Shown here one piece after another: positions 12,215-24,700 of a stretch of 64,000 nucleotides of DNA. How positions within the stretch are numbered: the stretch's first letter is position 1; each line of letters opens with the position of its first letter. Both the position numbers and the translations under genes were made by a program. Source of the stretch: an uncultured Actinomycetes bacterium (GTDB lineage: Bacteria; Actinomycetota; Thermoleophilia; Gaiellales; Gaiellaceae); contig CAVTNM010000008.1 of NCBI GenBank assembly GCA_963736055.1, positions 1,012,599 through 1,076,598 on the forward strand, written 5' to 3'. The notes beneath the pieces were generated by a model. It had not been told where the DNA came from. It searched no databases and saw nothing but the letters and a program-made list of their open reading frames with translations.

Positions 12215-12955
12215 CAGCCCGTCGCTCCGAAACGCTCGGTCCGAATCCAGCGCGGGTCGTAGCCGAGGCGCACGAGCCCGTCGGCTGCAGCGTCGACGAA
12301 CCGGGTCGAGCCGCAGACGAAGACCTTCGGCTCGTCCTCCACGGGCCAGGCGACGTCACGGAGGAGCTCGTCGTCGATTCGCCGGCCGTAGCCGGTCCAG
12401 CCGGGCGGCTGCTCGCGGGTGAGCGTGTGCACCACCTCGAAGCCGTTTCCGGCACGCGCCTCGAGCTCGTCCCGGTAGATCACGTCCTCCAGTGTGCGCG
12501 AGGAGAAGAGCAGCCGCATCGGCGTGCTGCCTCCCTCGACGCGCGCGGTTGCGCGCCATCGACATCAGCGGCACGACACCCGAACCTCCCGCGACCAGCA
12601 GCACCGGCGAGGAGTCTCCCGGCTCCCAGACGAAGTAGCCGCCGATCGGGCCGCGCACCTCGAACGAGTCGCCTCCCCGGGCTTCGTCCACGAGGTACGG
12701 CGAGACCTCGCCGTCGTCGAGCCGCTCGACGGTCAGGGCGAGCGGCTCACCGGGCGCGGAGGCGATCGAGTAGCTCCGCTCGGCCTGGTAGCCGTCCTCC
12801 GCGGTCAGGCGCACGTCGAGGTGCTGGCCGGCGACGTGGCCCGGCCAGCCGGAGGCCTCGAGCTCGAGCGTCTTGACCCGCGGCGTCTCCCAGCTTCCTC
12901 CCGCCACCTCGGCGGTGAGCCAGGTCAGTCGCCCCAGTACCGCTGTTCTAGCCAC
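12214..12955 (-). pseudogene. FNR-like FAD/NAD(P)-binding oxidoreductase (ferredoxin reductase-type), 1-nt frameshift
   Basis: The N-part is in the frame of ORF 12356..13390 (LTWLTAEVAGGSWETPRVKTLELE...RSYSIAS...LLVAGGSGVVPLMSMARNRA). The C-part is ORF 12214..12519 (MRLLFSSRTLEDVIYRDELE...VFVCGSTRFV). The span is 742 nt, which is 3n+1. Junction at about 12535-12545. Confidence 0.8.
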
Positions 12956-13521
12956 GGATCCCCCCGCAGGTGGTAGCCGTTGGTCTCCCAGAAGCCCGGC
13001 TCGTCGTTGTCTCGCAAGGTGAGCCCGCGGACCCACTTGGCGCTCTTCCAGAAGTAGAGGTGCGGCACGAGCAGCCTGGCGGGCCCGCCGTGTTCGGCCT
13101 CGAGCGGTTCGCCGCCGTAGCGGAATGCCACCCAGGCCTTGCCGTCGGTCACGTCCTCGAGCGGCAGGTTGGTCGTGTAGCCGCCGTCGCTGAAGGCGAG
13201 CACGTACTCGGCGTCGTGCTCGACCTGGTCCAGGAGGGTGTCGACCGAGACGCCCTCCCAGACCGTGTCGAGCTTCGACCATTTGGTGACGCAGTGGATG
13301 TCCTTCGTGACCGTCTCGGTCGGGAGCCGGCGGAACTCGTCCCAGCTCCAGCTCACCGGCTCGGCGCCGCCCTCGATCGAGAATGTCCACTCTTCGAGCG
13401 GCGTGTGCGGCGTCGGCCCGGCGGAAAGCACGGGGAAGTCGTCTGTCAGGTACTGGCCGGGCGGGACGCGGTCGGGCGGGCCGTCTTGTCGCCGCCCTCT
13501 GAACCCTCGCGAGATGATCAT
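12925..13521 (-). CDS. Sulfite-oxidase-like / MsrP-like molybdopterin-dependent oxidoreductase
   Basis: ATG 13521 (MIISRGF...). GQYLTDDFPVLSAGPTP...KDIHCVTKWSKLDTVWEGV...HGGPARLLVPHLYFWKSAKWV. Confidence 0.85.
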   Translation of the reverse strand: MIISRGFRGRRQDGPPDRVPPGQYLTDDFPVLSAGPTPHTPLEEWTFSIEGGAEPVSWSWDEFRRLPTETVTKDIHCVTKWSKLDTVWEGVSVDTLLDQVEHDAEYVLAFSDGGYTTNLPLEDVTDGKAWVAFRYGGEPLEAEHGGPARLLVPHLYFWKSAKWVRGLTLRDNDEPGFWETNGYHLRGDPWLEQRYWGD

Positions 13522-13525
13522 CCGC

Positions 13526-14542
13526 TCAACTCGCCGCGAGCCCGGCGACCGTAGCGGGGACACCTTCGAACTCGCCCACGGGCGCGAGGCTGCCGTCGTC
13601 GCCGACCGTCCAGCCGAACACCCGCTGCGCGTCCGCGTCGATCGCGTAGAGGTGACGGCCGTCTCGGCTGATCGCCTCGTCGCGGATGCCCTTCTCGCCG
13701 AGCCGGGTCGAAGCGGCGACCGGCTCGAGCAACTCGATGCTGCCGTCGCCGCCGATCGCGTAGCTCGAGATCGTCCCGTCGCCGAAGTTCGTCACGTAGG
13801 CAAAGCGCCCGTCGTTCGTGATGGCGGCCCAGCAGACCTCGCTCCGCGTGTCGCCGATCGAGGCGCTGACCGGTGCCAGCCGGCCGGGCTCGTCGATCGA
13901 GTAGGAGGATGCCGCGGCAGCGCCGACCTCGCCGCCGAAGGCCTCCGTCACGATCACGGCGCCCTCCGCGAAGCCGAAGCCGTAGGGCGTGGCGCCCGAG
14001 GAGGCGATCGTGGCCGGGCCGTCCGCCTTCCCGCGCTCGTCGATGGTGAACGTGCTGATGCTGTTCGTGCCCCGCTCGGTGACGACGATCGTCCGTCCGT
14101 CTGGGCTGAATGCGATCTGCGCCGGATCGGCGCCGTCCTCGAGTTTCCTCGACGAGCCGACCAACGGAGTTAGGGCGCCGCCCGCGAGCGAGAAGCCGCT
14201 GATCCCGGGCTCGCCGTTGTTGAGGACGTAAGCGATCTCGCCGTGCGCCGCGATGCTGGTCGGCGTCCTCCCGCCGGAAGGTGCCGTTGCCACGAGCAGC
14301 AGCCCGTCGGGCTCGACTTCGAACAATGAGATCTCGTCGCTGCCGGTGTTCGTGACCAGCAGCAGCGTGCCGTCGTCGTTCAGCACCACCGAGCTCTGCG
14401 ACGGCAGATGCGGCTTGCCGGTCCCGCGCCCGCCGGTGTCAAAGGTGCCCAGCTGCTCGAGCCGGCCGTCGGCCGAGCGGTCGAACGCGACGATCTCGTT
14501 TCGCTTCGCGTCGTTCGTCTGTACGTAGATCCGTTCGGTCAT
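13526..14542 (-). CDS. Lactonase-family (YncE/6-phosphogluconolactonase-like) beta-propeller protein
   Basis: 338 aa. Repeated motifs: ...GG.GT.HL....DG..L.V.N..S..IS.F, and FSPDGRTIVVTERGTNSISTF. Confidence 0.8.
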   Translation of the reverse strand: MTERIYVQTNDAKRNEIVAFDRSADGRLEQLGTFDTGGRGTGKPHLPSQSSVVLNDDGTLLLVTNTGSDEISLFEVEPDGLLLVATAPSGGRTPTSIAAHGEIAYVLNNGEPGISGFSLAGGALTPLVGSSRKLEDGADPAQIAFSPDGRTIVVTERGTNSISTFTIDERGKADGPATIASSGATPYGFGFAEGAVIVTEAFGGEVGAAAASSYSIDEPGRLAPVSASIGDTRSEVCWAAITNDGRFAYVTNFGDGTISSYAIGGDGSIELLEPVAASTRLGEKGIRDEAISRDGRHLYAIDADAQRVFGWTVGDDGSLAPVGEFEGVPATVAGLAAS

Positions 14543-15781: not shown

Positions 15782-16660
15782 TCATTGCTGCCTCGGATAC
15801 GCGAGCGGCGCCGGCGGAGCGCTATGGCTGCTCGGTGCGGGAAGCGGCGCCGGGCCGCCCCCGCTGGGTGACGGAGTGCTCGGACGCTGGGTCGCGGTCG
15901 ATGTCGCGGGCGCGGTGGTGGTGCGAACGACCTGAACCGCCAGGTCGCGGCCGGACTGGGACGTGTTCGGGCGGACGGGCGGCGAGACGCGGCGAACCCT
16001 CCGCCGGATCGGCCGCGCAGGCTTCGTTTTCGCACGGGTGACGCTGGGCCTGGGCGTGCTGACCGCGTCGCGGGCGGCCGTTCGGTTGTCCGGAGCCGCG
16101 ACGGCGCGTCCGGCCGGTGTGTGCCGGTTGTGCTGGAAGACGGCACCGGCGACTCCGAGGAGCACTGCCGCGGAGACGGTCGCGACAGCTGCCCAGCGCA
16201 AGAGCGGCCGGAAGGAGGGTGTTGGCCGACGGCGCGGCGCCGCTCGGGCGGGCCGGGAGAACCCGAGGTCCGCAGCCCAGAAGCCGATTCCGCCGTAGCG
16301 GCTGGCTGCCACGTAGAGGTCGGTATGGCCGGCCGCCTTGAAGTCGCCGGCCGAAGGCCACGTCGTCCGGCTGCCGCAGAACTCGACGAGAGCCGCACGA
16401 ATGCGCTTGTTCGTCCAGTGGCGCTGGGAGGGCTGCGACCGGCGCGGCAGGCGGTAACGGGTCGAACGTCCGCCGCCGAGCCGCTCGACCAGGCCGGCCT
16501 GGACGAGCTCCGCGAGATCGTAGGCAGCCTGCGAGCGGCTCACCCCGGTGAGCTGCTGGTACTCCCCGCGCGTGAGCTCTTCGGCCGTTCCCTCGTTCAG
16601 GGCGGCCAACGCGTCCCGCTGTGCGGGCTTCAACTCGTTTCGACCGGCCCTGTGCGGCAT
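15782..16660 (-). CDS. Membrane-tethered winged-HTH protein with Pro-rich extracytoplasmic tail
   Basis: N-terminus ELTRGEYQQLTGVSRSQAAYDLAELVQAGLVERLGGGRSTRYRL (Fic-C-terminal-type wHTH). WTNKRIRAALVEFCG...DFKAAGHTDLYVAASRYGGIGFWAADLGF repeat. One TM segment (LLRWAAVATVSAAVLLGVAGAVF), then a P/T/R-rich tail. Confidence 0.6.
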   Translation of the reverse strand: MPHRAGRNELKPAQRDALAALNEGTAEELTRGEYQQLTGVSRSQAAYDLAELVQAGLVERLGGGRSTRYRLPRRSQPSQRHWTNKRIRAALVEFCGSRTTWPSAGDFKAAGHTDLYVAASRYGGIGFWAADLGFSRPARAAPRRRPTPSFRPLLRWAAVATVSAAVLLGVAGAVFQHNRHTPAGRAVAAPDNRTAARDAVSTPRPSVTRAKTKPARPIRRRVRRVSPPVRPNTSQSGRDLAVQVVRTTTAPATSTATQRPSTPSPSGGGPAPLPAPSSHSAPPAPLAYPRQQ

Positions 16661-16812
16661 CGTGCCCTCCCCAGGTCACGCAGAAGCCGTGCAGGTCCAA
16701 CTGTAGCGCAGTTTCGGCGAAACGATAGATCCGAGCCATCGCCGGCCGGTTGAAATCGCGATTTTCACCGCTCCAGGCCGCGAAACGTCGCATTCTCAGG
16801 GCTCTGGAGGCT

Positions 16813-16842
16813 TTCGTCCAACCGCCTGAGCTATTCGTCCAA
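16813..16842 (+). promoter_or_regulatory. Direct repeat TTCGTCCAA-N12-TTCGTCCAA (21-bp phase) in a low-GC divergent intergenic region
   Basis: Exact 9-mers at 16813-16821 and 16834-16842. The surrounding region 16780-16985 is visibly AT-richer than the rest of the window. Confidence 0.3.
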
Positions 16843-16988
16843 TGAAATGTTGTTAGAAATGTTTTACGCCTCTGGATTTGATTGTAAACGTAAGCGCTAG
16901 AGTCGTGAATTCGCAAAAGATTAGTGGAAATCACGGAGTCACTCTGGTAGCCTCAATTACGGCAGTCGAGTTTCTTACGCGCGTGAAA

Positions 16989-18014
16989 ATGGAGACCGTG
17001 ACCTCTTCGCCCCGCCCGCGCCTCCTCGGATGGCGAGCTCGCCTGTGCCTCGCGGCCGCGCTGTGTGCGCTGTATCCGCTGGCGGCGGCAGGCACTGCGA
17101 TGGCGGACGATGTGGTGCCGACGCTCCCGCCGCTCACGCAGAGCGCCACGACGGATCAGGGATCGGCCGCAAACGGCGTGGTTACGCAGTCTGGAGCCGA
17201 CAACCTGGTGATCTCGATCCGCATCGACAGCCCGGGCAACGACGGCCCGATCTCCCAGTCGAATCTCGCGACGGGCGCGGTCGGAGCCGGAAACGGCAGC
17301 GGCACGTCGCAGGCCGGCGGAGCCCAGCCGGGCGGCAGCCAGCAGGCCGCGACCGGGCAAGAAGCAGGTGCAACGGGCGAGGTTTCGCAGTCCCAACCGA
17401 AAAATGTCGTCATTTCCGTTCGAGTCAACAGCCCGGGCAACAACGGACCGATCGCGCAGACGAACATCGCGGGCGTGGGCGTTGATGCGATCAACGGAAG
17501 TGCCACCGATCAAGCGGGCGGAAAGCCCGCCGGGGAGACGCCCAGGACAGCAGTGCCTCGAGCGCACCCCTTGCGGCACGGAGCAGCGCCCGCCGAGGCA
17601 GCTCGCGGCACGAAGACCGCTGCAGAGGCACGCAGCAGTCAGCCGGCGCCTCGGCGGAGCGCTCCCGCACCCCATCCCGCCGTAAGCCAGGCGGAAAAGT
17701 CGCTCGGGCGGCCGGTCAGCGGAGCCGCAGCCGCTCAAACCGCCGGTTTTCCGGCGGCGGCCGCCCGGGCGTCCGGTAACGAACAAGCGCCACGGCACGC
17801 TGCACAGGCCGGCGCGCTTCGGCGCGCGGCGGCGACCGTTCTCGGGCCGGTCGAGCGCGTGCGGCTCCCGGCGGTGACCCCGCCGGCCGGTCAGCGGGCC
17901 GAGGGGGCCGGCCTGCTGACCCTCAGTGCCGTCGCGTTGCTCGGAGCACTGCTCGTGTGGCTCGTTTCGTCGCGGGTGGGACCGCTTCGCACCGCCCGGG
18001 GACGGCGGGCATGA
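16989..18014 (+). CDS. Secreted repeat protein P1 (SPGNxGPIxQxN repeats, Ala/Pro stalk, C-terminal TM anchor)
   Basis: ATG 16989. Signal peptide ending AMA|DD. NLVISIRIDSPGNDGPISQSNLA and NVVISVRVNSPGNNGPIAQTNIA repeats. C-terminus LLTLSAVALLGALLVWLVSS..RGRRA. Confidence 0.6.
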   Translation: METVTSSPRPRLLGWRARLCLAAALCALYPLAAAGTAMADDVVPTLPPLTQSATTDQGSAANGVVTQSGADNLVISIRIDSPGNDGPISQSNLATGAVGAGNGSGTSQAGGAQPGGSQQAATGQEAGATGEVSQSQPKNVVISVRVNSPGNNGPIAQTNIAGVGVDAINGSATDQAGGKPAGETPRTAVPRAHPLRHGAAPAEAARGTKTAAEARSSQPAPRRSAPAPHPAVSQAEKSLGRPVSGAAAAQTAGFPAAAARASGNEQAPRHAAQAGALRRAAATVLGPVERVRLPAVTPPAGQRAEGAGLLTLSAVALLGALLVWLVSSRVGPLRTARGRRA

Positions 18015-18847
18015 GGAACCGGACGAATAGCGGCGGTCGATTGGACGATTACGGACGAAACCGCAGCACCCAAGCCGATCTCGGCCCCCGTTGCAACACG
18101 CTTCTGAAGGGCTGCGCGGTAGCCGTCGCAGTCCTGGCCGCGGCCAGCCTGCATGTCGGCTCCGCGCGGGCGGCCGGCGAGGCGGTCCCGACCGACCTTT
18201 CCGCACAGGTCGACGAAATCGTCTCGTCGGCGCTCGCCACGGCGCAGGCACCCTCGAGCGAGGCGCCGGCCAGGGCGACGAATCTCGTCAACCAGGCCAT
18301 GGCGCTCGCCAACAACGCCGCTGCGGAGGCGACAGCGAGGGCAGCGCCGCTGGTGCCCCAGAGCGCCGGCGCGGAGGTGCCGGTCTCGACCGCGGCCTCG
18401 AACGAGCTCGGCACGCCTGCGCGCACGCCGCCTGCGCGGTCGCGTCACGCGCGCGCGAGGAAACACGCCCATGCGCCGGCGCCTCGCCCAAAGACCCAGG
18501 CTCGGACGATTCCGGGCTTCGCCCCCTCTCACGGCTCCGCGCTCTCAACCTCTCCCCCCACGGCGAGGTCTTTGTCGTTCTCGCCGAAGCGAGCGGCGAA
18601 GACCTCGCCGCGCCCGGAGCGCTCGGCGCCGCCCGAGCATCCGCGGCCGCCGGGGCCGATGCCTCCGAGACCGGATGCCTCGTCGGCCGGCCAGAGCGGG
18701 GGCCAGAACGCGCCGGTGCCGCTGTTACTTGCGGTGGTGCTTGGTGTGTTGCTCGTCTTTGGATTCCAATTTCTGCCTCGCCTGCTTCCGTTATTGGCCT
18801 TCCGGAAGCCGAGGCGCATCGTTCTCCCCTCCTGGCACCCGGGCTGA
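18011..18847 (+). CDS. Secreted/anchored Ala- and Pro-rich protein P2
   Basis: ATG 18011 overlaps the P1 stop (ATGA). Hydrophobic leader CAVAVAVLAAASLHVGSARA. C-terminal TM segment PLLLAVVLGVLLVFGF. Low complexity, so the frame is less certain. Confidence 0.5.
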   Translation: MRNRTNSGGRLDDYGRNRSTQADLGPRCNTLLKGCAVAVAVLAAASLHVGSARAAGEAVPTDLSAQVDEIVSSALATAQAPSSEAPARATNLVNQAMALANNAAAEATARAAPLVPQSAGAEVPVSTAASNELGTPARTPPARSRHARARKHAHAPAPRPKTQARTIPGFAPSHGSALSTSPPTARSLSFSPKRAAKTSPRPERSAPPEHPRPPGPMPPRPDASSAGQSGGQNAPVPLLLAVVLGVLLVFGFQFLPRLLPLLAFRKPRRIVLPSWHPG

Positions 18848-18949
18848 CGCCCTTCTCCGGCCATACGGAGCGTGCCGTTCTGCGACGGCGCGCCGACGTA
18901 CGCGCGCTGTTCTGCGACAGCGCGTAGCCCCTACGACCAAGGAGAAGGG

Positions 18950-20983
18950 ATGAAAGCCATAGTGATGAGCGTGGCCGTGGTGCTTGCCGCACTCGCCATT
19001 GCTCCCGCGGCGTTCGCCGACGGCTCCGGTGGTCCCGGTGGTGCGCAAGCCGGGATCCAGGCCGCGTCGACCGTCCAGGGAGCCTTAGGCGTGGCGCTGA
19101 GCCACCAGAACGCGGTCAACGCCAACGTGCCCGTGAACATCGCCGGCGGCAACATCACCGCCGCCGGTCCGAGCACGGCCACCCAGATGGCCACTTCGAG
19201 CGCCAACGCGGACGTCTCGAACAAGGCCAAGACCGATCAGGACCAACACCTCACTCAGAACATCGGCGGCTCCGGCTGTGTGGCCGGATGCGGCGGTGCG
19301 GGAGGATTCCAGGCCGGGGTCCAAGCAGCCGACACCAAGCAGATTGCCGTCGGGGCCGCCAAGAGCGACCAGAACGCAGTGAACGCGAACGTGCCCGTGA
19401 ACATCGCGGGCGGAAACGTCAACTCCGGCCCGAGCTCGGCGACGCAGACGGCGAACTCGACGGCCAACACGAACGTCAAGAACAAGTCCAAGACCGACCA
19501 GCATCAGACGCAGGATCAGAACATCGGTGGTAGCGGCTCCTGCAAGCTCGGTTGCGGCGGTGCCGGCGGCTTCCAGGCCGGCGTCCAGGCAGCCGACACG
19601 AAGCAGGCCGCGCTGGGGATCTCCGACAGCCACCAGAACGCAGTGAATGCCAACGTGCCCGTGAACATCGCGGGCGGCGACATCAACTCCGGCCCGAGCT
19701 CGGCGACGCAGACGGCGAACTCGACGGCCACCACGAACGTGAAGAACAAGTCGAAGACCGACCAGGACCAGCACCTCACCCAGAACATCGGCGGCTCAGG
19801 CTGCTACGCGGGTTGCGGTGGTCCAGGCGGCTTCCAGCTCGGTGTCCAGAAGGCCGACACCCAGCAGCTGGCGCTCGGATTCTCAAAGAGCGACCAGAAC
19901 GCGGTCAACGGCAACTCGCCGGTCAACATCGCCGGAGGTGACATCAACTCCGGGCCGAGCTCGGCGACGCAGACGGCGACGTCCACCGCGGACACCGACG
20001 TCGAGAACAACGCCAAGACCGACCAGGATCAGGGGCTGAACCAGAACATCGGCAACAGCGACATGAAGGCCCCGGTCCTGTGCTCCTGCGAGGGGAGAAA
20101 CAAGGACAAGGTCGGCCGTCAGGATCATCGGAAGAACGGCAAGTACGGCAAGAAGGGCCGCAAGAACGGCTCGCCCAGCCGCACTGCCAGCCCGATCGGC
20201 AACAACAGCTCGGTCAGCCCGATCGGCAACAACAGCTCGGTCAGCCCGACCGGCAACAACAGCTCGGTCAGCCCGACCGGCAGCAACAACTCGGTCAGCC
20301 CGACCGGCAACAGCCGCACCGCCTACCCGCTCGGCAACAACGCGCGCCGGAGCGGGACGCTCGGCAACGAGGCCAGCAAGGGCAGCCCGAACGACAAGGG
20401 CAGCGGCAACAACAGCGGGTCCGGCGGCATCCCGGACGCCCAGAGGGCTAGCCGCAAGGGCGGCTGCGTCGTCGGTTGCGGCGGCGCGGGTGGGTTCCAG
20501 CTCGGGATCCAGGGCGCCGAGACCAAGCAGGGTGCGCTCGGCATCGCGAAGAGCCACCAGAACGCCGTCAACTCGAACGCACCCAGCTCGGTAGCCGGGA
20601 AGGACATCGACTCCGGCCGCGCCCCGAGCAGTGCGACGCAGACGGCGACGTCGTCCGCGAACGCGGACGTCAAGAACAAGGCGAAGACGGACCAGGACCA
20701 GGACCTCCACCAGAACATCGGCGACTCCGGCTGCGTGGCCGGCTGCGGCGGTGCGGGTGGGTTCCAGGCCGGGGTCCAGCTGTCCAAGACGGAACAGCTC
20801 GCGCTCGGGTTCGGCATCAGCGACCAGAACGCGGTCAACGGCAACGCGCCGCACTCCGTAGCCGGAGGGAACATCTACGACGGCGGGAGCAACGCGACGC
20901 AGACAGCGACGTCGACTGGTAAGACTGACGTCAAGAACAAGGGCAAGACCGACCAGAACCAGTGGGAGGACCAGCTGCTCTGA
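18950..20983 (+). CDS. Secreted 677-aa Q/N/T/G-rich protein P3 with six repeats of about 82-88 aa, each bounded by a CxxxC pair
   Basis: AAGGAGAAGGG RBS before ATG 18950. Signal peptide ending AFA|DG. Repeat unit: GGSGC.AGCGGAGGFQAGVQAADTKQ.A.G...S.QNAVNANVPVNIAGGN.NSGPSSATQTANSTANTNVKNKSKTDQDQ.L.QNI. Confidence 0.75.
   Translation: MKAIVMSVAVVLAALAIAPAAFADGSGGPGGAQAGIQAASTVQGALGVALSHQNAVNANVPVNIAGGNITAAGPSTATQMATSSANADVSNKAKTDQDQHLTQNIGGSGCVAGCGGAGGFQAGVQAADTKQIAVGAAKSDQNAVNANVPVNIAGGNVNSGPSSATQTANSTANTNVKNKSKTDQHQTQDQNIGGSGSCKLGCGGAGGFQAGVQAADTKQAALGISDSHQNAVNANVPVNIAGGDINSGPSSATQTANSTATTNVKNKSKTDQDQHLTQNIGGSGCYAGCGGPGGFQLGVQKADTQQLALGFSKSDQNAVNGNSPVNIAGGDINSGPSSATQTATSTADTDVENNAKTDQDQGLNQNIGNSDMKAPVLCSCEGRNKDKVGRQDHRKNGKYGKKGRKNGSPSRTASPIGNNSSVSPIGNNSSVSPTGNNSSVSPTGSNNSVSPTGNSRTAYPLGNNARRSGTLGNEASKGSPNDKGSGNNSGSGGIPDAQRASRKGGCVVGCGGAGGFQLGIQGAETKQGALGIAKSHQNAVNSNAPSSVAGKDIDSGRAPSSATQTATSSANADVKNKAKTDQDQDLHQNIGDSGCVAGCGGAGGFQAGVQLSKTEQLALGFGISDQNAVNGNAPHSVAGGNIYDGGSNATQTATSTGKTDVKNKGKTDQNQWEDQLL
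19022..20050 (+). repeat. Four tandem intragenic repeats of about 246-264 nt (P3 repeats 1-4)
   Basis: Repeats 2 and 3 are about 93% identical over a 133-nt block that I compared base by base (19369-19501 vs 19632-19764). Confidence 0.8.
20189..20314 (+). repeat. 27-nt tandem repeat, about 4.6 copies, encoding SP[IT]GNNSSV
   Basis: agcccgatcggcaacaacagctcggtc x2, then agcccgaccggcaacaacagctcggtc and diverged copies. In frame within P3. Confidence 0.85.
20458..20980 (+). repeat. P3 repeats 5-6 (diverged copies of the 87-aa unit)
   Basis: GGCVVGCGGAGGFQLGIQGAETKQ... and GDSGCVAGCGGAGGFQAGVQLSKTEQ... Confidence 0.75.
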
Positions 20984-21033: not shown

Positions 21034-22389
21034 TTATCTCCGGGCGACGGCGATCAGCGTCGGCGTCGTCCTGCCGCCGCTGCGGGGTCGCAGGATCGTC
21101 ACGTAGGCGGTCGTGTCCGAGAGCGCGGTCGTCCAGAGGATCCGCGCCGTCGGCCTCGGCCGGTGCGGGCACGGGACGCGCTCGCCCTGGCTCGTGTGGC
21201 CTTCCTCGTGGCCCCGGTCCTGGCCGGCCAGGGGTGGCAGCTCGTAGAGGACGCGATCCTTTCCGCCGCGCAGCGGGCCGAGCCGCAGCTCCTGGGCGCA
21301 GCGGGAGACGCGGACGTAGAGGAGGCTCGACCCGAGCAGGGACGGGTTGAGGAGCTGGGCGTCGCGTGAGAACCGCACACGCCGTCTCGTTCCGTCGGCG
21401 ACGTTCACCGCCGTCAGCCAGCTGCCGCCCGCCGTGGAGTAGTGGTAGACGACGAGGTCGCCGTCGAGGGCCGGCCTGCCGAGCTCCGCGACCCGCTTCG
21501 CCTCGACCACGAGCGCGCTCCGGCTCGTGTCGCTCAGCGCCTGCACGCGGATCTGGCGGCCGCTGCGCCAGACGAGCCAGCGGTCGGAGACCGCCAGCTT
21601 CTGCGCTCCGGGGATCGACTCCTGGACGACCGGGGCGAGGGTGTCCCGCGAGGCCACCGTGACGGTCGGGCCGGAGCGCCAGGCGACGAGAGCCCCGCCG
21701 ATCGCCGGGTCGTTCCCGGGGAGCTGCGCTCGAAGGCCGCTGCGCGAGAGGAAGCCCCCGACACCCGGCTGCTGCCAGGCGAGATCGGCGCCCGCTGCGC
21801 TCGGGTCGCCCCCGTGCGCCGCGACGGTTCCGGCGGCCTTGACCTCGCCTGCGGCGAGCGCCAGCAGGAGCGAGGCCGCGATCAACGCACGTAGTGCCCG
21901 CAGCCCCATGGGCCGCTCGGCGAGGACGGTCTCTTCGCCCCGCGCGGCGAGCACGAGCACCGGCACCGCGCGGCCGAGCGCGAACCCGAGCCCGATCGCG
22001 AGCGAGCCGGTCACGCTGCCGAGCGCCAGCCCGAGTGCCGGGAGCGCCCAGGCGGCGGTCGCGGGCACGTAGGTGGAGAGACCGGTCCCGAGCAGCAGCC
22101 CGTAGAGAAGGAGCGCGAGCGGGAGCGGCATCGTCCGCCGCCAGGGCTCCGGCACCTGGAAGTGGATCTGCGGGCGCACGCGTAGCCCGGCCGCGTCGCT
22201 CAGGATCGCCGCCGCCGCGACCGCCAAGGCCACGACGACGATGGCACGTGACTGCACCGCCTCGCCGAGCAGGCCGAGCACGCCGAAGACCAGCGCCGCG
22301 CCGAGCGCAAGGCCGACGGCGAAGGCGGCCGCGGTCAGCGCAAAGGCTCGTCGTCCGTCCTGGCGTGCGGCACTCACGGTGCCGACCAT
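21034..22389 (-). CDS. Polytopic membrane domain (DsbD/CcdA- or MauF-like?) fused to an extracytoplasmic beta-propeller-like domain
   Basis: N-terminal 190 aa with 5-6 TM segments and RPQIHFQVPEPWRR. The C-terminal 260 aa carry repeated strands: LAWQQPG, ALVAWRSG, RWLVWRSG, DLVVYHYS, SLLYVRVS, TAYVTIL. Confidence 0.6.
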   Translation of the reverse strand: MVGTVSAARQDGRRAFALTAAAFAVGLALGAALVFGVLGLLGEAVQSRAIVVVALAVAAAAILSDAAGLRVRPQIHFQVPEPWRRTMPLPLALLLYGLLLGTGLSTYVPATAAWALPALGLALGSVTGSLAIGLGFALGRAVPVLVLAARGEETVLAERPMGLRALRALIAASLLLALAAGEVKAAGTVAAHGGDPSAAGADLAWQQPGVGGFLSRSGLRAQLPGNDPAIGGALVAWRSGPTVTVASRDTLAPVVQESIPGAQKLAVSDRWLVWRSGRQIRVQALSDTSRSALVVEAKRVAELGRPALDGDLVVYHYSTAGGSWLTAVNVADGTRRRVRFSRDAQLLNPSLLGSSLLYVRVSRCAQELRLGPLRGGKDRVLYELPPLAGQDRGHEEGHTSQGERVPCPHRPRPTARILWTTALSDTTAYVTILRPRSGGRTTPTLIAVARR

Positions 22390-22457
22390 CGAGAGGCTTC
22401 AGGGCGACCAGGCGCCCGCCAGCCCGACGAGCAGCCCGGTCAGCGAGAGCGCCGCGG

Positions 22458-23027
22458 TCAGCACTTGATCTTCGTGTCGTAGTACATGACGCAGAAGACC
22501 CTGCGGCCGCTGTAGCAGTAGCCCGTGAGCGCGGCGTCGCCGTTGATCCGGTGGCGGACCGCGCCACAGCAGTCGACGAGCTTGCGTACGTGGCCGCCGC
22601 AGCAGCGGTACCACGCTCCGTCGATCTGCGGGCGGAAGCCGAACTCCCGTCCGGCGGCCGTGCAGACGCGTGTCCGCGCCGCCGGTGGGAGCGGATTGCC
22701 GTCGGGATCGCGCAGGAGGCCGCCGCCGGGCGCGACGGGCCGGCCGCGAGCGTCGATCGGGCGACCGAGGTCGTCGACCGGCTTCCCGTCGGCGGCGCGC
22801 AGCGGGAAGCCGTTGCGGTCGATCCGGGGCAGGCCGACCGGGTGCGGGCAGGAGCCGGTCGTGTAGATGTGGCCGCAGAAGTGGTAGGCCTCGGCCTTCT
22901 GGGCGCGCAGGGCCGCTGCGAGGAAGCCTCCGCCGGTCACGCCGAGGAGCAGTCGCCCCGCCCGGGCGATGAACCCTCGCCGCGAGGTCGAGCCGGCGAC
23001 GGCCTCGCTGAGCCTGAGGTCAGGCAC
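22458..23027 (-). CDS. Tat-exported, 10-Cys methylamine-dehydrogenase-light-chain (MauA)-like protein
   Basis: GTG 23027 overlaps the upstream stop (GTGCCTGA). Twin-arginine leader STSRRGFIARAG. YHFCGHIYTTGSCPHP...AWYRCCGGHVRKLVDCCG...GYCYSGRRVFCVMYYD aligns by eye with MauA blocks CDYWRHCS..C.C / AYRDCCGY / WCFG..TYHC. Confidence 0.65.
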   Translation of the reverse strand: MPDLRLSEAVAGSTSRRGFIARAGRLLLGVTGGGFLAAALRAQKAEAYHFCGHIYTTGSCPHPVGLPRIDRNGFPLRAADGKPVDDLGRPIDARGRPVAPGGGLLRDPDGNPLPPAARTRVCTAAGREFGFRPQIDGAWYRCCGGHVRKLVDCCGAVRHRINGDAALTGYCYSGRRVFCVMYYDTKIKC

Positions 23028-23916
23028 CCACGGGTCTGGTCGCGTGTGCGATGAGGCTCTCCAGCTGGAAGAGCGAGTTGAACGTGCCCTTCGCGAGCAC
23101 CTCGCCGTCGCGGCCGAGCACGACGCCGTAGGGGCTTCCCGGCACGCCCAGCGACGACCAGGCCTCCGCATCGGCCTCCTCGTCGAAGAGCTCGAGCTCC
23201 ACCTCGGGATCGGTGGCGACGAGTCGCAACGAGGGCTCGAGCGCGCGGCAGAGGGCGCAACCCGCGGAGGTGAAGACCGCGACCGCGAGCGGCGCGCGGC
23301 CCTCGAAGCGGTCGATCAGCCCGACTCGCCCCCCGAGCTCCGGCCCCTCGTGGTCGAGCGACAGGGCGGCCTGCGGGGCGACGGCGAGACGCAGCTCCCC
23401 GAGCTCGCGGGCGAGCGCGAGCACCGCGACTGCGACCGCGACCAGGCCGAGGAGCGACAGGACGAGGCCCGCGCCCAGCCAGGCCTCGGTCGACGGCTTC
23501 GTGTCCGGAAGGAAGGCGACCGCCGCGGCTCCGGCTGCCAGGAGCGCGGTGCGCGTGAAGGCCGGCCACCCGATCCGCGAGCGGCCGCCGAAGCACCCGC
23601 AGGGCGCGCCCGCTCGTCCACGGAGGATCGCGAGCGCGAGTGCCGAGGCAAAGACGCCGAACAGGACGGCAGCCGCCCCGGCCGCGCCGGGAACATCGGC
23701 GGCGAGGGCGACCGCGATCCCGATCTCGGCGACGATCGTCGCGGTCCACAGAGTGGCACGCGAGCGGACGGATCCGATCCCGTAGGAGCGCAGTGCATCG
23801 CGGCCGGAACGGCCCGAGGCGAGCTTCGCCGCCGCGGAGACGAGCAGCACGGCGGCCAGCAGGAACCGGAGAAGACCCACGACGGTCAAGCGGGCGGGAG
23901 GATACATAGCGCCCAT
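23020..23916 (-). CDS. MauE/DoxX-like membrane domain fused to a thioredoxin-fold (MauD/TlpA-like) domain
   Basis: 4 TM segments with the GAPCGCFGG motif. C-terminal domain AVAVFTSAGCALCRALEP...LGVPGSPYGVVLGRDGEVLAKG (CxxC). An alternative ATG is at 23907. Confidence 0.7.
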   Translation of the reverse strand: MGAMYPPARLTVVGLLRFLLAAVLLVSAAAKLASGRSGRDALRSYGIGSVRSRATLWTATIVAEIGIAVALAADVPGAAGAAAVLFGVFASALALAILRGRAGAPCGCFGGRSRIGWPAFTRTALLAAGAAAVAFLPDTKPSTEAWLGAGLVLSLLGLVAVAVAVLALARELGELRLAVAPQAALSLDHEGPELGGRVGLIDRFEGRAPLAVAVFTSAGCALCRALEPSLRLVATDPEVELELFDEEADAEAWSSLGVPGSPYGVVLGRDGEVLAKGTFNSLFQLESLIAHATRPVGA

Positions 23917-24700
23917 GCGCCCACTGGCCCTTCTTTCGCTCTCGCTGCTCCTCGTCGGGGCGGCGAGCTCGAGCGTCGGAGTGCGGGCCGCGGCCCTCGG
24001 CCGGTCGCTCCAGGGCCGGAGGATCGTCGCCTACGAGCTCGGAGCTCCGAAGAGCCCGCGCAAGGTGCTCGTCGTCGGCTGCGTCCACGGCAACGAGTGC
24101 GCCGGGATCGCCGTCCTCGACCGGCTCCGCGGCCTCGGCCCGATTCCGGGAGTCGACCTCTGGCTCGTGCCGGACGCGAACCCCGACGGCCGGGCGGCGG
24201 GGGTGCGCGGCAACTCGCGCGGCGTCGACCTGAACCGGAACTTCCCCTGGCGCTGGCGTCCGCTCGGCGGCGTCAACTACTCAGGCGCCGGCCCCGCCTC
24301 GGAGCGCGAGACGCGCATCGCCATGCGCCTGATCCGGCGGCTGCACCCGAAGGTCACGATCTGGTTCCACCAGCACCTGAACATGGTCGTCCTCACCGCC
24401 GGGAACCTCGGCCTGCAGCGCCGCTTCGCCCGCCTTGCCGGTCTGAGGGCCGGGCGGCTGCCCAGTTACCCGGGCACGGCGACCGGCTGGTCGAACGCGA
24501 CCTTTGCCGGGACGACGGCCTTCGTGGTCGAGCTCCCTGCCGGGCGGCTGCCGGCCCGGGCCGTCGCTCGGCTCGCGCGGGCGGTGCGCGAGACGGCTGG
24601 GTGCGGCTCACAGCGAGTGCAGGATGTAGGCCTCGATCGGGTCGCCCTTCCCCTTGACCTGGAGGGGCGGCAAGCGCTCGAGCACGGCTCCGGGCGGTAG
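23915..24700 (+). CDS. M14-family zinc carboxypeptidase (MpaA / gamma-D-Glu-DAP amidase-like), secreted
   Basis: Signal peptide MRPLALLSLSLLLVGAASS. VGCVHGNECAG, PDANPDG, GVDLNRNF. The last 93 nt overlap the convergent cyclase gene, so the 3' end is uncertain. Confidence 0.75.
   Translation: MRPLALLSLSLLLVGAASSSVGVRAAALGRSLQGRRIVAYELGAPKSPRKVLVVGCVHGNECAGIAVLDRLRGLGPIPGVDLWLVPDANPDGRAAGVRGNSRGVDLNRNFPWRWRPLGGVNYSGAGPASERETRIAMRLIRRLHPKVTIWFHQHLNMVVLTAGNLGLQRRFARLAGLRAGRLPSYPGTATGWSNATFAGTTAFVVELPAGRLPARAVARLARAVRETAGCGSQRVQDVGLDRVALPLDLEGRQALEHGSGR

Follow-up and report, generated by a model that had tools for sequence, protein, structure and literature searches.

We analyzed a 64-kb stretch of DNA (64,000 nucleotides (nt), hereafter the window) from an uncultured Gaiellaceae bacterium of the class Thermoleophilia (contig CAVTNM010000008.1, positions 1,012,599 to 1,076,598), and centered the work on three genes at 21034-23916 of the window which recall, in part, the mau gene cluster for methylamine dehydrogenase (MADH). 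A first-pass annotation, made from the sequence alone, had placed three co-directional genes on the minus strand here, and the open reading frames (ORFs) exist as it described them: gene 1 (23020-23916, 298 amino acids (aa)), gene 2 (22458-23027, 189 aa, starting at GTG) and gene 3 (21034-22389, 451 aa). Their G+C content at third codon positions (GC3), 0.89-0.92, is coding-like, in a genome of 70% G+C. The GTG start of gene 2, located inside GTGCCTGA, overlaps the stop codon of gene 1, as had also been noted. Since overlaps of this kind usually mark translational coupling, gene 2 was read as coupled in this way to gene 1; 68 nt separate gene 2 from gene 3. The analysis covered the whole window and 80 related loci of ±6 kb (n = 81 loci in synteny counts), and residue conservation was scored over the relatives covering each position (for gene 2, 80 genome loci). 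The features of the locus, with the evidence for each in brackets, are as follows.

23020..23916, minus strand: gene 1, MauE-type disulfide-forming membrane domain followed by a MauD-type thioredoxin domain (Pfam, NCBIfam, BLASTP)
23593..23601, minus strand: active-site motif CGC (CXC) at residues 106-108 of the MauE domain, with F-G directly after it (conservation)
23050..23484, minus strand: residues 145-289 of gene 1, MauD-like, with a fifth transmembrane (TM) helix and a thioredoxin fold (BLASTP)
23248-23259, minus strand: CALC motif of the gene 1 thioredoxin fold, residues 220-223 (conservation)
22887..23027, minus strand: leader of gene 2, residues 1-47, MauA-type twin-arginine signal peptide (TIGR02659, hhalign, leader hidden Markov model (HMM))
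22458..22886, minus strand: mature domain of gene 2, 142 aa, 10 invariant Cys, uncharacterised family (conservation)
21835..22389, minus strand: membrane domain of gene 3, residues 1-185 (MauF homology at residues 19-148, nt 21946-22335)
21043..21831, minus strand: predicted C-terminal six-bladed beta-propeller of gene 3, residues 187-449 (AlphaFold2 (AF2), Foldseek)
23915..24700, plus strand: divergent M14-family peptidase, perhaps weakly linked to the trio but outside the core unit (PF00246, E = 1e-14)

Mau-type helper domains in genes 1 and 3

The assignment of gene 1 as MauE plus MauD in one chain, initially based on a CGCFG and a CALC motif, was confirmed by profile and pairwise searches. 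The Pfam model for MauE, PF07291, matched residues 12-134 with E = 3.4e-17 (63.4 bits; cutoff, 27), and 40% identity to Paracoccus MauE was found over residues 89-128 by BLASTP. The remainder of the chain, residues 145-289, aligned with residues 2-177 of Paracoccus MauD (BLASTP, E = 2e-11), in an alignment that takes in the N-terminal membrane anchor of MauD itself. The NCBIfam model for MauD, TIGR02661, also detected gene 1 (E = 1.5e-9); as its score of 37.6 bits is far below the equivalog cutoff of 188.6, we regard gene 1 as a MauD homologue and not as an equivalog. A weak Thioredoxin_3 match was also observed in the thioredoxin part.

Gene 1 encodes four cysteines in total, arranged as C106-G-C108, directly followed by F-G, and as C220-A-L-C223. 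The first pair is kept in 73/73 covered relatives and the second in 77/77, while Lys31 and Glu64 are kept in 56/56 and 66/67 covered relatives, respectively. MauE proteins have been reported to stand in for DsbB in E. coli, to use a CXC motif as active site, to conserve a Lys in TM1 and a Glu in TM2 beside the predicted quinone site, and to be fused to a thioredoxin-superfamily domain in 8.2% of entries (bioRxiv 10.64898/2026.03.05.709764). Gene 1 resembles these fusions (bioRxiv 10.64898/2026.03.05.709764) in its four-helix MauE core, in the CXC-F-G within the TM3-TM4 loop, in the TM1 Lys and TM2 Glu and in the C-terminal thioredoxin fold with a CXXC motif; it differs in that the thioredoxin part is specifically MauD-like and retains the TM anchor of MauD. 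The conservation of the CXC, the CXXC and the Lys/Glu pair, together with their agreement with experimentally defined MauE features, supports assignment to the MauE pathway. Gene 1 is thus best read, from its sequence and by analogy, as a self-contained disulfide generator, of a type for which fusions joining vitamin K epoxide reductase (VKOR) to thioredoxin are an analogue.

The N-terminal part of gene 3 is a helical membrane domain of approximately 185 aa. Neither Pfam nor NCBIfam gave a match to gene 3, to its relatives or to MauF itself, and the DsbD_2/CcdA assignment of this domain, which also appears in some JGI labels, was therefore rejected as unsupported. As a reference, six canonical mau clusters were fetched via their MauA genes. 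The order mauF-B-E-D-A was present in 6/6 of them, which fits the naming of MauF by its position upstream of mauB, the order known from the mau literature. When the gene 3 membrane domain was compared with the six MauF sequences, hhalign returned a probability of 97.3% (E = 2e-11, 130 columns, 31% identity), while controls with MauE and MauB stayed below 1%; residues 69-146 reach 38% identity to MauF by BLASTP. The common core is a loop and helix with the pattern R-x-x-P-Q-x3-Q-V-P…R…P…L-Y-G…T-Y-V, and it is also the best-conserved part of the gene 3 family. Further, Paracoccus MauF directly matched 29 of the related loci by tblastn, and the orthologue from the most divergent trio (L089) matched MauF with E = 3e-16 by BLASTP and retained the SPCG motif described below. 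By sequence, the homology between the gene 3 membrane domain and MauF is clear.

An SPCG motif is found in the N-terminal TM helix of 6/6 MauF sequences. It is missing from gene 3 of the window, which is of a Gaiellaceae type that lost this helix and has a membrane domain without Cys, and it is present in 11 Solirubrobacterales-type homologues as well as in L089. The orthologues that keep SPCG in an extra N-terminal helix are L052, L054, L056, L059, L064, L065, L067, L068, L075, L078, L080 and L089. Given the loss of SPCG in the lineage of the window, any thiol chemistry of MauF would be dispensable in Gaiellaceae.

In line with the earlier proposal of a membrane-anchored propeller, AF2 modeled residues 187-449 of gene 3, which follow the membrane domain, with a predicted local distance difference test (pLDDT) score above 90 as 24 beta-strands, corresponding to six four-stranded blades. 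A Foldseek search of this model against the Protein Data Bank (PDB) gave 649 matches at E<=1e-3, which were generic propellers led by BamB, LRP6 and TolB; the MADH heavy chain was not among the top 50. Homology of the propeller to the heavy chain, MauB, was undetectable by Foldseek and hhalign, and only fold class and gene position agree. The positively charged segments of gene 3 (the N-terminus, the loop 67-87 and the segment 150-167) would all lie inside if residues 110-149 cross the membrane once, so that the propeller most likely faces outward, as judged from this charge distribution.

One loop of the propeller, modeled with low confidence, carries the HExxH-like sequence QDxGHExxHTxQGExxPCP (21196-21210, residues 394-398) and is accompanied by Cys364 and Cys407. 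Loop and cysteines are near-invariant in gene 3 proteins of the Gaiellaceae type and missing from those of the Solirubrobacterales type. They may represent a lineage-specific metal or disulfide feature, and a family-wide role in the propeller was rejected because they are confined to Gaiellaceae-type proteins.

The putatively exported ten-cysteine protein encoded by gene 2

A twin-arginine-type leader followed by a domain with 10 Cys had been recognised in gene 2, and both bore up: the leader contains SRRGFI, in which R16 is kept in 80/80 loci and R17 in 79/80, and the Cys count is exactly 10. The twin-arginine motif STSRRGFIARAG is followed by a hydrophobic region and an AEA site, and cleavage would putatively occur between AEA and YH; the generic TAT_signal models of Pfam and NCBIfam gave no match. 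TIGR02659, the NCBIfam model for the MADH small subunit, covered residues 5-42 only, and a full-length MauA HMM matched residues 6-37. Comparison of the gene 2 leader with the MauA leader gave hhalign probabilities of 96-97%, and an HMM built from the family leader scored 115 MauA leaders with a median of 19.2 bits, compared to <=10.6 bits for 18 other leaders of the twin-arginine translocation (Tat) pathway. As far as sequence comparison goes, the part of gene 2 that resembles MauA is thus the leader, which is specifically MauA-like, and not the mature domain. The homology of the latter to MauA was undetectable by Pfam, PDB searches, hhalign, column shuffling and a locally built HMM.

All 10 Cys are kept in 80/80 genome loci where covered, the C-terminal Cys189 being covered in 67 only, and R16, R17, H49, H53, H62, R118, W139, R141 and Y170 are conserved along with them; W139 is the only invariant Trp of the family. 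Homologues of gene 2 (n = 2682) are all annotated as hypothetical or unnamed and have no Pfam domain. They occur in 439 species genomes of the GTDB-representative set and form a tight family with only about six intact clusters at 50% identity, once the many seemingly divergent cluster representatives that proved to be frameshifted gene calls had been discarded.

The AF2 model of gene 2 reached a mean pLDDT of only 61.7, which renders a Foldseek search against the PDB uninformative; nothing was found, and the model is too weak for this to count either way. The N-terminal 20 residues of the mature protein have a pLDDT below 50. A group of N-terminal His and Cys residues (HFCGH…CPHP) includes H49, C51, H53, C60 and H62, which are kept in 80/80 genome loci. 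A family-wide 2Cys-2His site in this segment was rejected, as H49 and H62 are replaced in P0251 and P0252, the two most divergent intact members. RZ-type zinc-finger matches, far under threshold, were obtained over residues 136-158 in 49/60 members. The best-modeled stretch comprises residues 66-118 (22674-22832, pLDDT 76-91), where short repeats of the form D-x-x-G-x-P-(L/V), five or six in number and recurring every 7-8 residues, are predicted to form a beta-bridge ladder; this run of repeats is an insert with no MauA counterpart and no known family.

Conservation of the trio and its surroundings

The synteny of the trio in relatives, on which the earlier reading depended, was confirmed by tblastn. 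Gene 1 lies directly upstream of gene 2 in 79/81 loci and gene 3 downstream of gene 2 in 79/81, with contig ends accounting for most exceptions. These loci span Gaiellales, Solirubrobacterales and Thermoleophilaceae, and the trio is also intact in the most divergent member (49% identity). Every named locus among the best 80 belongs to Thermoleophilia (Gaiellaceae, Solirubrobacterales or Thermoleophilaceae), and the cultured carriers include Solirubrobacter soli, S. deserti and S. phytolaccae. Identity to the window protein ranges over 62-92% for gene 2, 46-83% for gene 1 and 32-86% for gene 3, and gene 2, with the highest range, thus encodes the protein under the strongest constraint within the trio. 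A search around the trio for a fourth partner conserved throughout the class found none.

The statement that MauB, MauG and amicyanin are missing was substantiated as well. No MauB, MauG, amicyanin, MauJ, MauM or MauN was found by tblastn in the window or in the 80 related loci, no adjacent MauB or MauG was found in the relatives, and Pfam searches of the neighbouring genes gave no MauB, MauG or amicyanin, cytochromes in general not having been searched exhaustively. Only a single MauE, that of gene 1, was detected in the window by tblastn.

None of the other neighbours is a constant companion. An M14 peptidase gene is near the trio in 16/81 loci, upstream in some and downstream in others. In the window, a single palindromic CATG (23914-23917) is common to the ATG of gene 1 and that of the M14 peptidase, leaving no intergenic promoter space; in a near-identical contig, gene callers picked later starts for the two ORFs (295 aa and 229 aa, respectively). 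Within the peptidase ORF, ARAGORN called a 79-nt tRNA-Gly(GCC) (23964-24042, plus strand); the Rfam tRNA model was silent at its gathering threshold, and the call is therefore probably spurious, made in coding DNA that is rich in G+C. Genes for a cyclase and a saccharopine dehydrogenase are near the trio only in close relatives.

Only in Gaiellaceae is gene 3 followed by lactonase-like, molybdopterin oxidoreductase and FNR-like genes, which come directly after it in 17-24 relatives. In the window, the corresponding genes, the lactonase-like one encoding a 7-bladed propeller, lie at 12217-14542 on the minus strand. The distance of approximately 6.5 kb from gene 3 (14.6-21.0 kb) suggests an insertion or rearrangement in the window genome. 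Within this interval, about 3 kb (15800-18800) has no ORF with coding-like GC3 except 15782-16660 on the minus strand, and no Rfam match.

Convergent with gene 3, a 703-aa secreted repeat protein without a Pfam match is encoded at 18872-20983 on the plus strand. Its repeats are of two sizes, 261 nt (3.6 copies, 19099-20053) and 27 nt (4.6 copies, 20188-20312), and each unit of about 87 aa has a GCxxGCGG Cys pair and a 'NAVNANVPVNIAGG' motif. A homologue is near the trio in 11/81 loci. The disulfide system might act on this protein as a further substrate.

Relationship to the mau cluster and proposed role of the trio

The trio shares homologues of MauE, MauD and MauF with the mau cluster of Paracoccus and Methylobacterium, mauF-B-E-D-A-(C-J-G-L-M-N). 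In both, MauD is followed by a small protein that is rich in Cys and has a MauA-type twin-arginine leader, and MauF by a beta-propeller. The order of the trio (E-D fusion, small protein, F-propeller fusion) is a cyclic permutation of mauF-B-E-D-A, so that gene 2 takes the MauA slot and the propeller that of MauB. The cyclic gene order, like the MauF homology of gene 3 and the MauA likeness of the gene 2 leader, had been missed in the first-pass annotation, and instead of its 'no MauB' it is better to say that the MauB slot is taken by a six-bladed propeller, unrecognisable as MauB, that is fused to MauF. In contrast to the mau cluster, E and D are fused, as are F and the propeller; the mature domain of gene 2 is not a PF02975 protein, has 10 instead of 12 Cys, contains an insert of about 50 aa and offers no supportable positions for the two Trp of the tryptophan tryptophylquinone (TTQ) cofactor; the propeller is not a PF06433 protein and has six blades; and no MauG, amicyanin or MauJ/L/M/N was found in the loci analyzed. 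Moreover, the hosts are Actinomycetota (Thermoleophilia), while those of the mau cluster are Proteobacteria, and the MauF domain of the window lacks SPCG. A full-text search of the literature found no description of the trio.

Based on these results, we propose that the trio is a deeply diverged MADH-style biogenesis module, in which a disulfide-rich small subunit would be built, without TTQ, on a propeller tethered to the membrane, and we give this reading a probability of about 0.5. By analogy with its family, the MauD domain of gene 1 (CALC), held outside by the fifth TM helix, would accept electrons from substrate cysteines, and these would travel on, via the CGC loop of MauE, to the membrane quinone. 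The gene 2 precursor would be exported and cleaved, and its 142-aa mature domain locked by up to five disulfides. The small protein would then dock on the outward-facing propeller of gene 3, which presumably corresponds to the MADH heavy chain in position and fold class, and the MauF domain of gene 3 would take part in the hand-over of the small subunit. From the order of the trio and the two fusions, the module probably shares ancestry with the mau cluster. Since no genes for making TTQ or for an electron acceptor were found in the window and the 80 loci, and since the mature domain is unrecognisable as MauA, the product is not expected to be a TTQ amine dehydrogenase, and such an end product is very unlikely. 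It could be a structural, ligand-binding or differently cofactored surface complex, and the product of the trio is probably a new, uncharacterised cell-surface complex. The arrangement would be similar in concept to that of quinohemoprotein amine dehydrogenase (QHNDH), whose small, Cys-rich and heavily cross-linked gamma subunit is paired with a beta-propeller; its cross-links are thioethers and cysteine tryptophylquinone (CTQ), whereas the enzyme adjacent to the small protein in the trio is a disulfide oxidase. A radical-SAM QhpD, a flavoprotein QhpG, a dihaem subunit and a QhpC-like sequence were not seen here, no search aimed at them having been made.

Several results weigh against this proposal. 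Neither gene 2 nor any of 60 family members matched PF02975 at E<=10, and nothing was found in the PDB for gene 2 by phmmer sequence search or with the family profile. A profile of the mature domain gave an hhalign probability of 0.7% against 115 genuine MauA sequences; the score of 15.7 compares with 13.8±3.3 for 100 column shuffles, 20 of which equaled or exceeded the real score, and in global mode the scores fell below the shuffle mean. A locally built HMM of the MauA mature domain scored the gene 2 family at <=3.3 bits. The Cys blocks which the first-pass annotation had aligned by hand with those of MauA thus match at chance level. Gene 2 has 10 Cys instead of 12, and as no alignment has statistical support, neither a positional match to the two TTQ Trp nor the residues (Arg/Thr and Tyr) that the first-pass annotation had put in their place are demonstrable. 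The propeller, in turn, gave neither a PF06433 nor any other Pfam match and an hhalign probability of 0.3% against MauB, and it has six blades where MauB has seven. Its outward orientation is derived from the positive-inside argument alone, and a reading with six TM helices would leave the propeller in the cytoplasm. The interaction of the gene 2 and gene 3 products is a prediction. Besides, the identity of MauF itself is given by cluster position, there being no curated model for it, and most of the 18 Tat leaders used as controls come from E. coli. Finally, the presence of MauE does not by itself imply a link to MADH, as only about 10% of species with MauE have MauA. The evidence for a relationship with MADH is one of gene context (order, slots, leader and MauF) and not the hand alignment. 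The earlier overall reading fared accordingly: its helper domains, leader, propeller and synteny stand, and among the Pfam models it had named PF07291 was significant, while its MauA-like mature domain is not supported by sequence, PF02975 did not match and neither did DsbD_2 on gene 3. The module without TTQ which it had envisaged, cross-linked or structural and docking on a propeller, is compatible with the evidence but unproven.

Among the alternatives, the most serious, although clearly less probable, is that gene 1 is the general DsbB/DsbA equivalent of the cell, with genes 2 and 3 as bystanders or as two of many substrates and no dedicated MADH-like module. The window contains one MauE only, and MauE complements an E. 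coli dsbB mutation, has been described as a generalist disulfide catalyst, co-occurs with MauA in only about 10% of MauE-bearing species and is a thioredoxin fusion in 8.2% of entries (bioRxiv 10.64898/2026.03.05.709764). However, the stop codon of gene 1 overlaps the start of gene 2, the trio stays together in 79/81 loci over several orders while all other neighbours change, gene 3 contains a homologue of MauF, a protein otherwise known from mau clusters only, and the gene 2 leader is MauA-like. The coupling of gene 1 to one 10-Cys protein in a conserved trio argues for a dedicated, and not only a general, role; both roles can coexist. A somewhat less probable explanation takes gene 2 as a Tat-exported redox protein that binds a metal or cluster loaded in the cytoplasm, in which Cys, such as those of HFCGH…CPHP, are ligands and not disulfides. 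This would account for the Tat leader, for the His and Cys residues kept in 80/80 loci, for the low pLDDT of the N-terminal 20 mature residues, as expected of a cofactor-dependent region, and for the RZ-type zinc-finger matches. Yet the latter are far under threshold, the two members mentioned above have other residues in place of H49 and H62, and a coupled disulfide oxidase beside a thiolate-liganded protein would be counter-productive. Nor does a Tat leader call for a cofactor of this kind, as MauA itself combines one with six disulfides.

It is far less likely that the trio makes a true TTQ amine dehydrogenase, with MauG, an electron acceptor and a recognisable heavy chain elsewhere in the genome. 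The MauE, MauD and MauF homologues and the MauA-like leader fit such an enzyme, and MauG can sit away from mauBEDA, e.g., in Methylacidiphilum, but the mature domain fails every MauA test, the context of its lone invariant Trp, W139, has no supported alignment to either TTQ Trp, and MauG, amicyanin and MauB were found neither in the window nor in the 80 loci. A secreted disulfide-rich toxin, bacteriocin or signal, matured by gene 1 and served by gene 3 for immunity, export or reception, is the least probable of all. A small exported Cys-rich product beside a dedicated oxidase and a membrane protein would suit it, whereas gene 2 is the most conserved of the trio (62-92% across orders, compared to 32-86% for gene 3) and present in 439 species genomes, the pattern of a housekeeping component and not of a diversifying toxin, and no bacteriocin-type transporter or protease is conserved nearby.

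Beyond the diverged biogenesis module that we favor, a bolder version, which we consider rather improbable, is that the trio constitutes a Thermoleophilia-wide surface enzyme of MADH descent, tethered by the MauF-propeller protein, whose small subunit carries another protein-derived cofactor or cross-link made without MauG (e.g., at Trp139, Tyr170 or Cys). If that were true, the MauF-propeller and MauE-MauD fusions would reveal the partner of MauF, which has long been unknown, and if the small subunit bears a new cofactor, it would enlarge the family of enzymes with protein-derived quinones and cross-links.

To our knowledge, the role of MauF has been an open question ever since the mau cluster was sequenced. 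Finding MauF naturally fused to a propeller, beside a fusion of MauE and MauD, provides Rosetta-stone evidence for an action of MauF on or together with the propeller subunit when the small subunit is assembled. The trio also comprises two families without a Pfam or NCBIfam model, the 10-Cys protein and the MauF-propeller protein, which nonetheless occur in at least 439 species, including cultured Solirubrobacter. With a MauE-thioredoxin oxidase and an obvious dedicated substrate side by side, it offers a clean system for the newly proposed MauE disulfide pathway.

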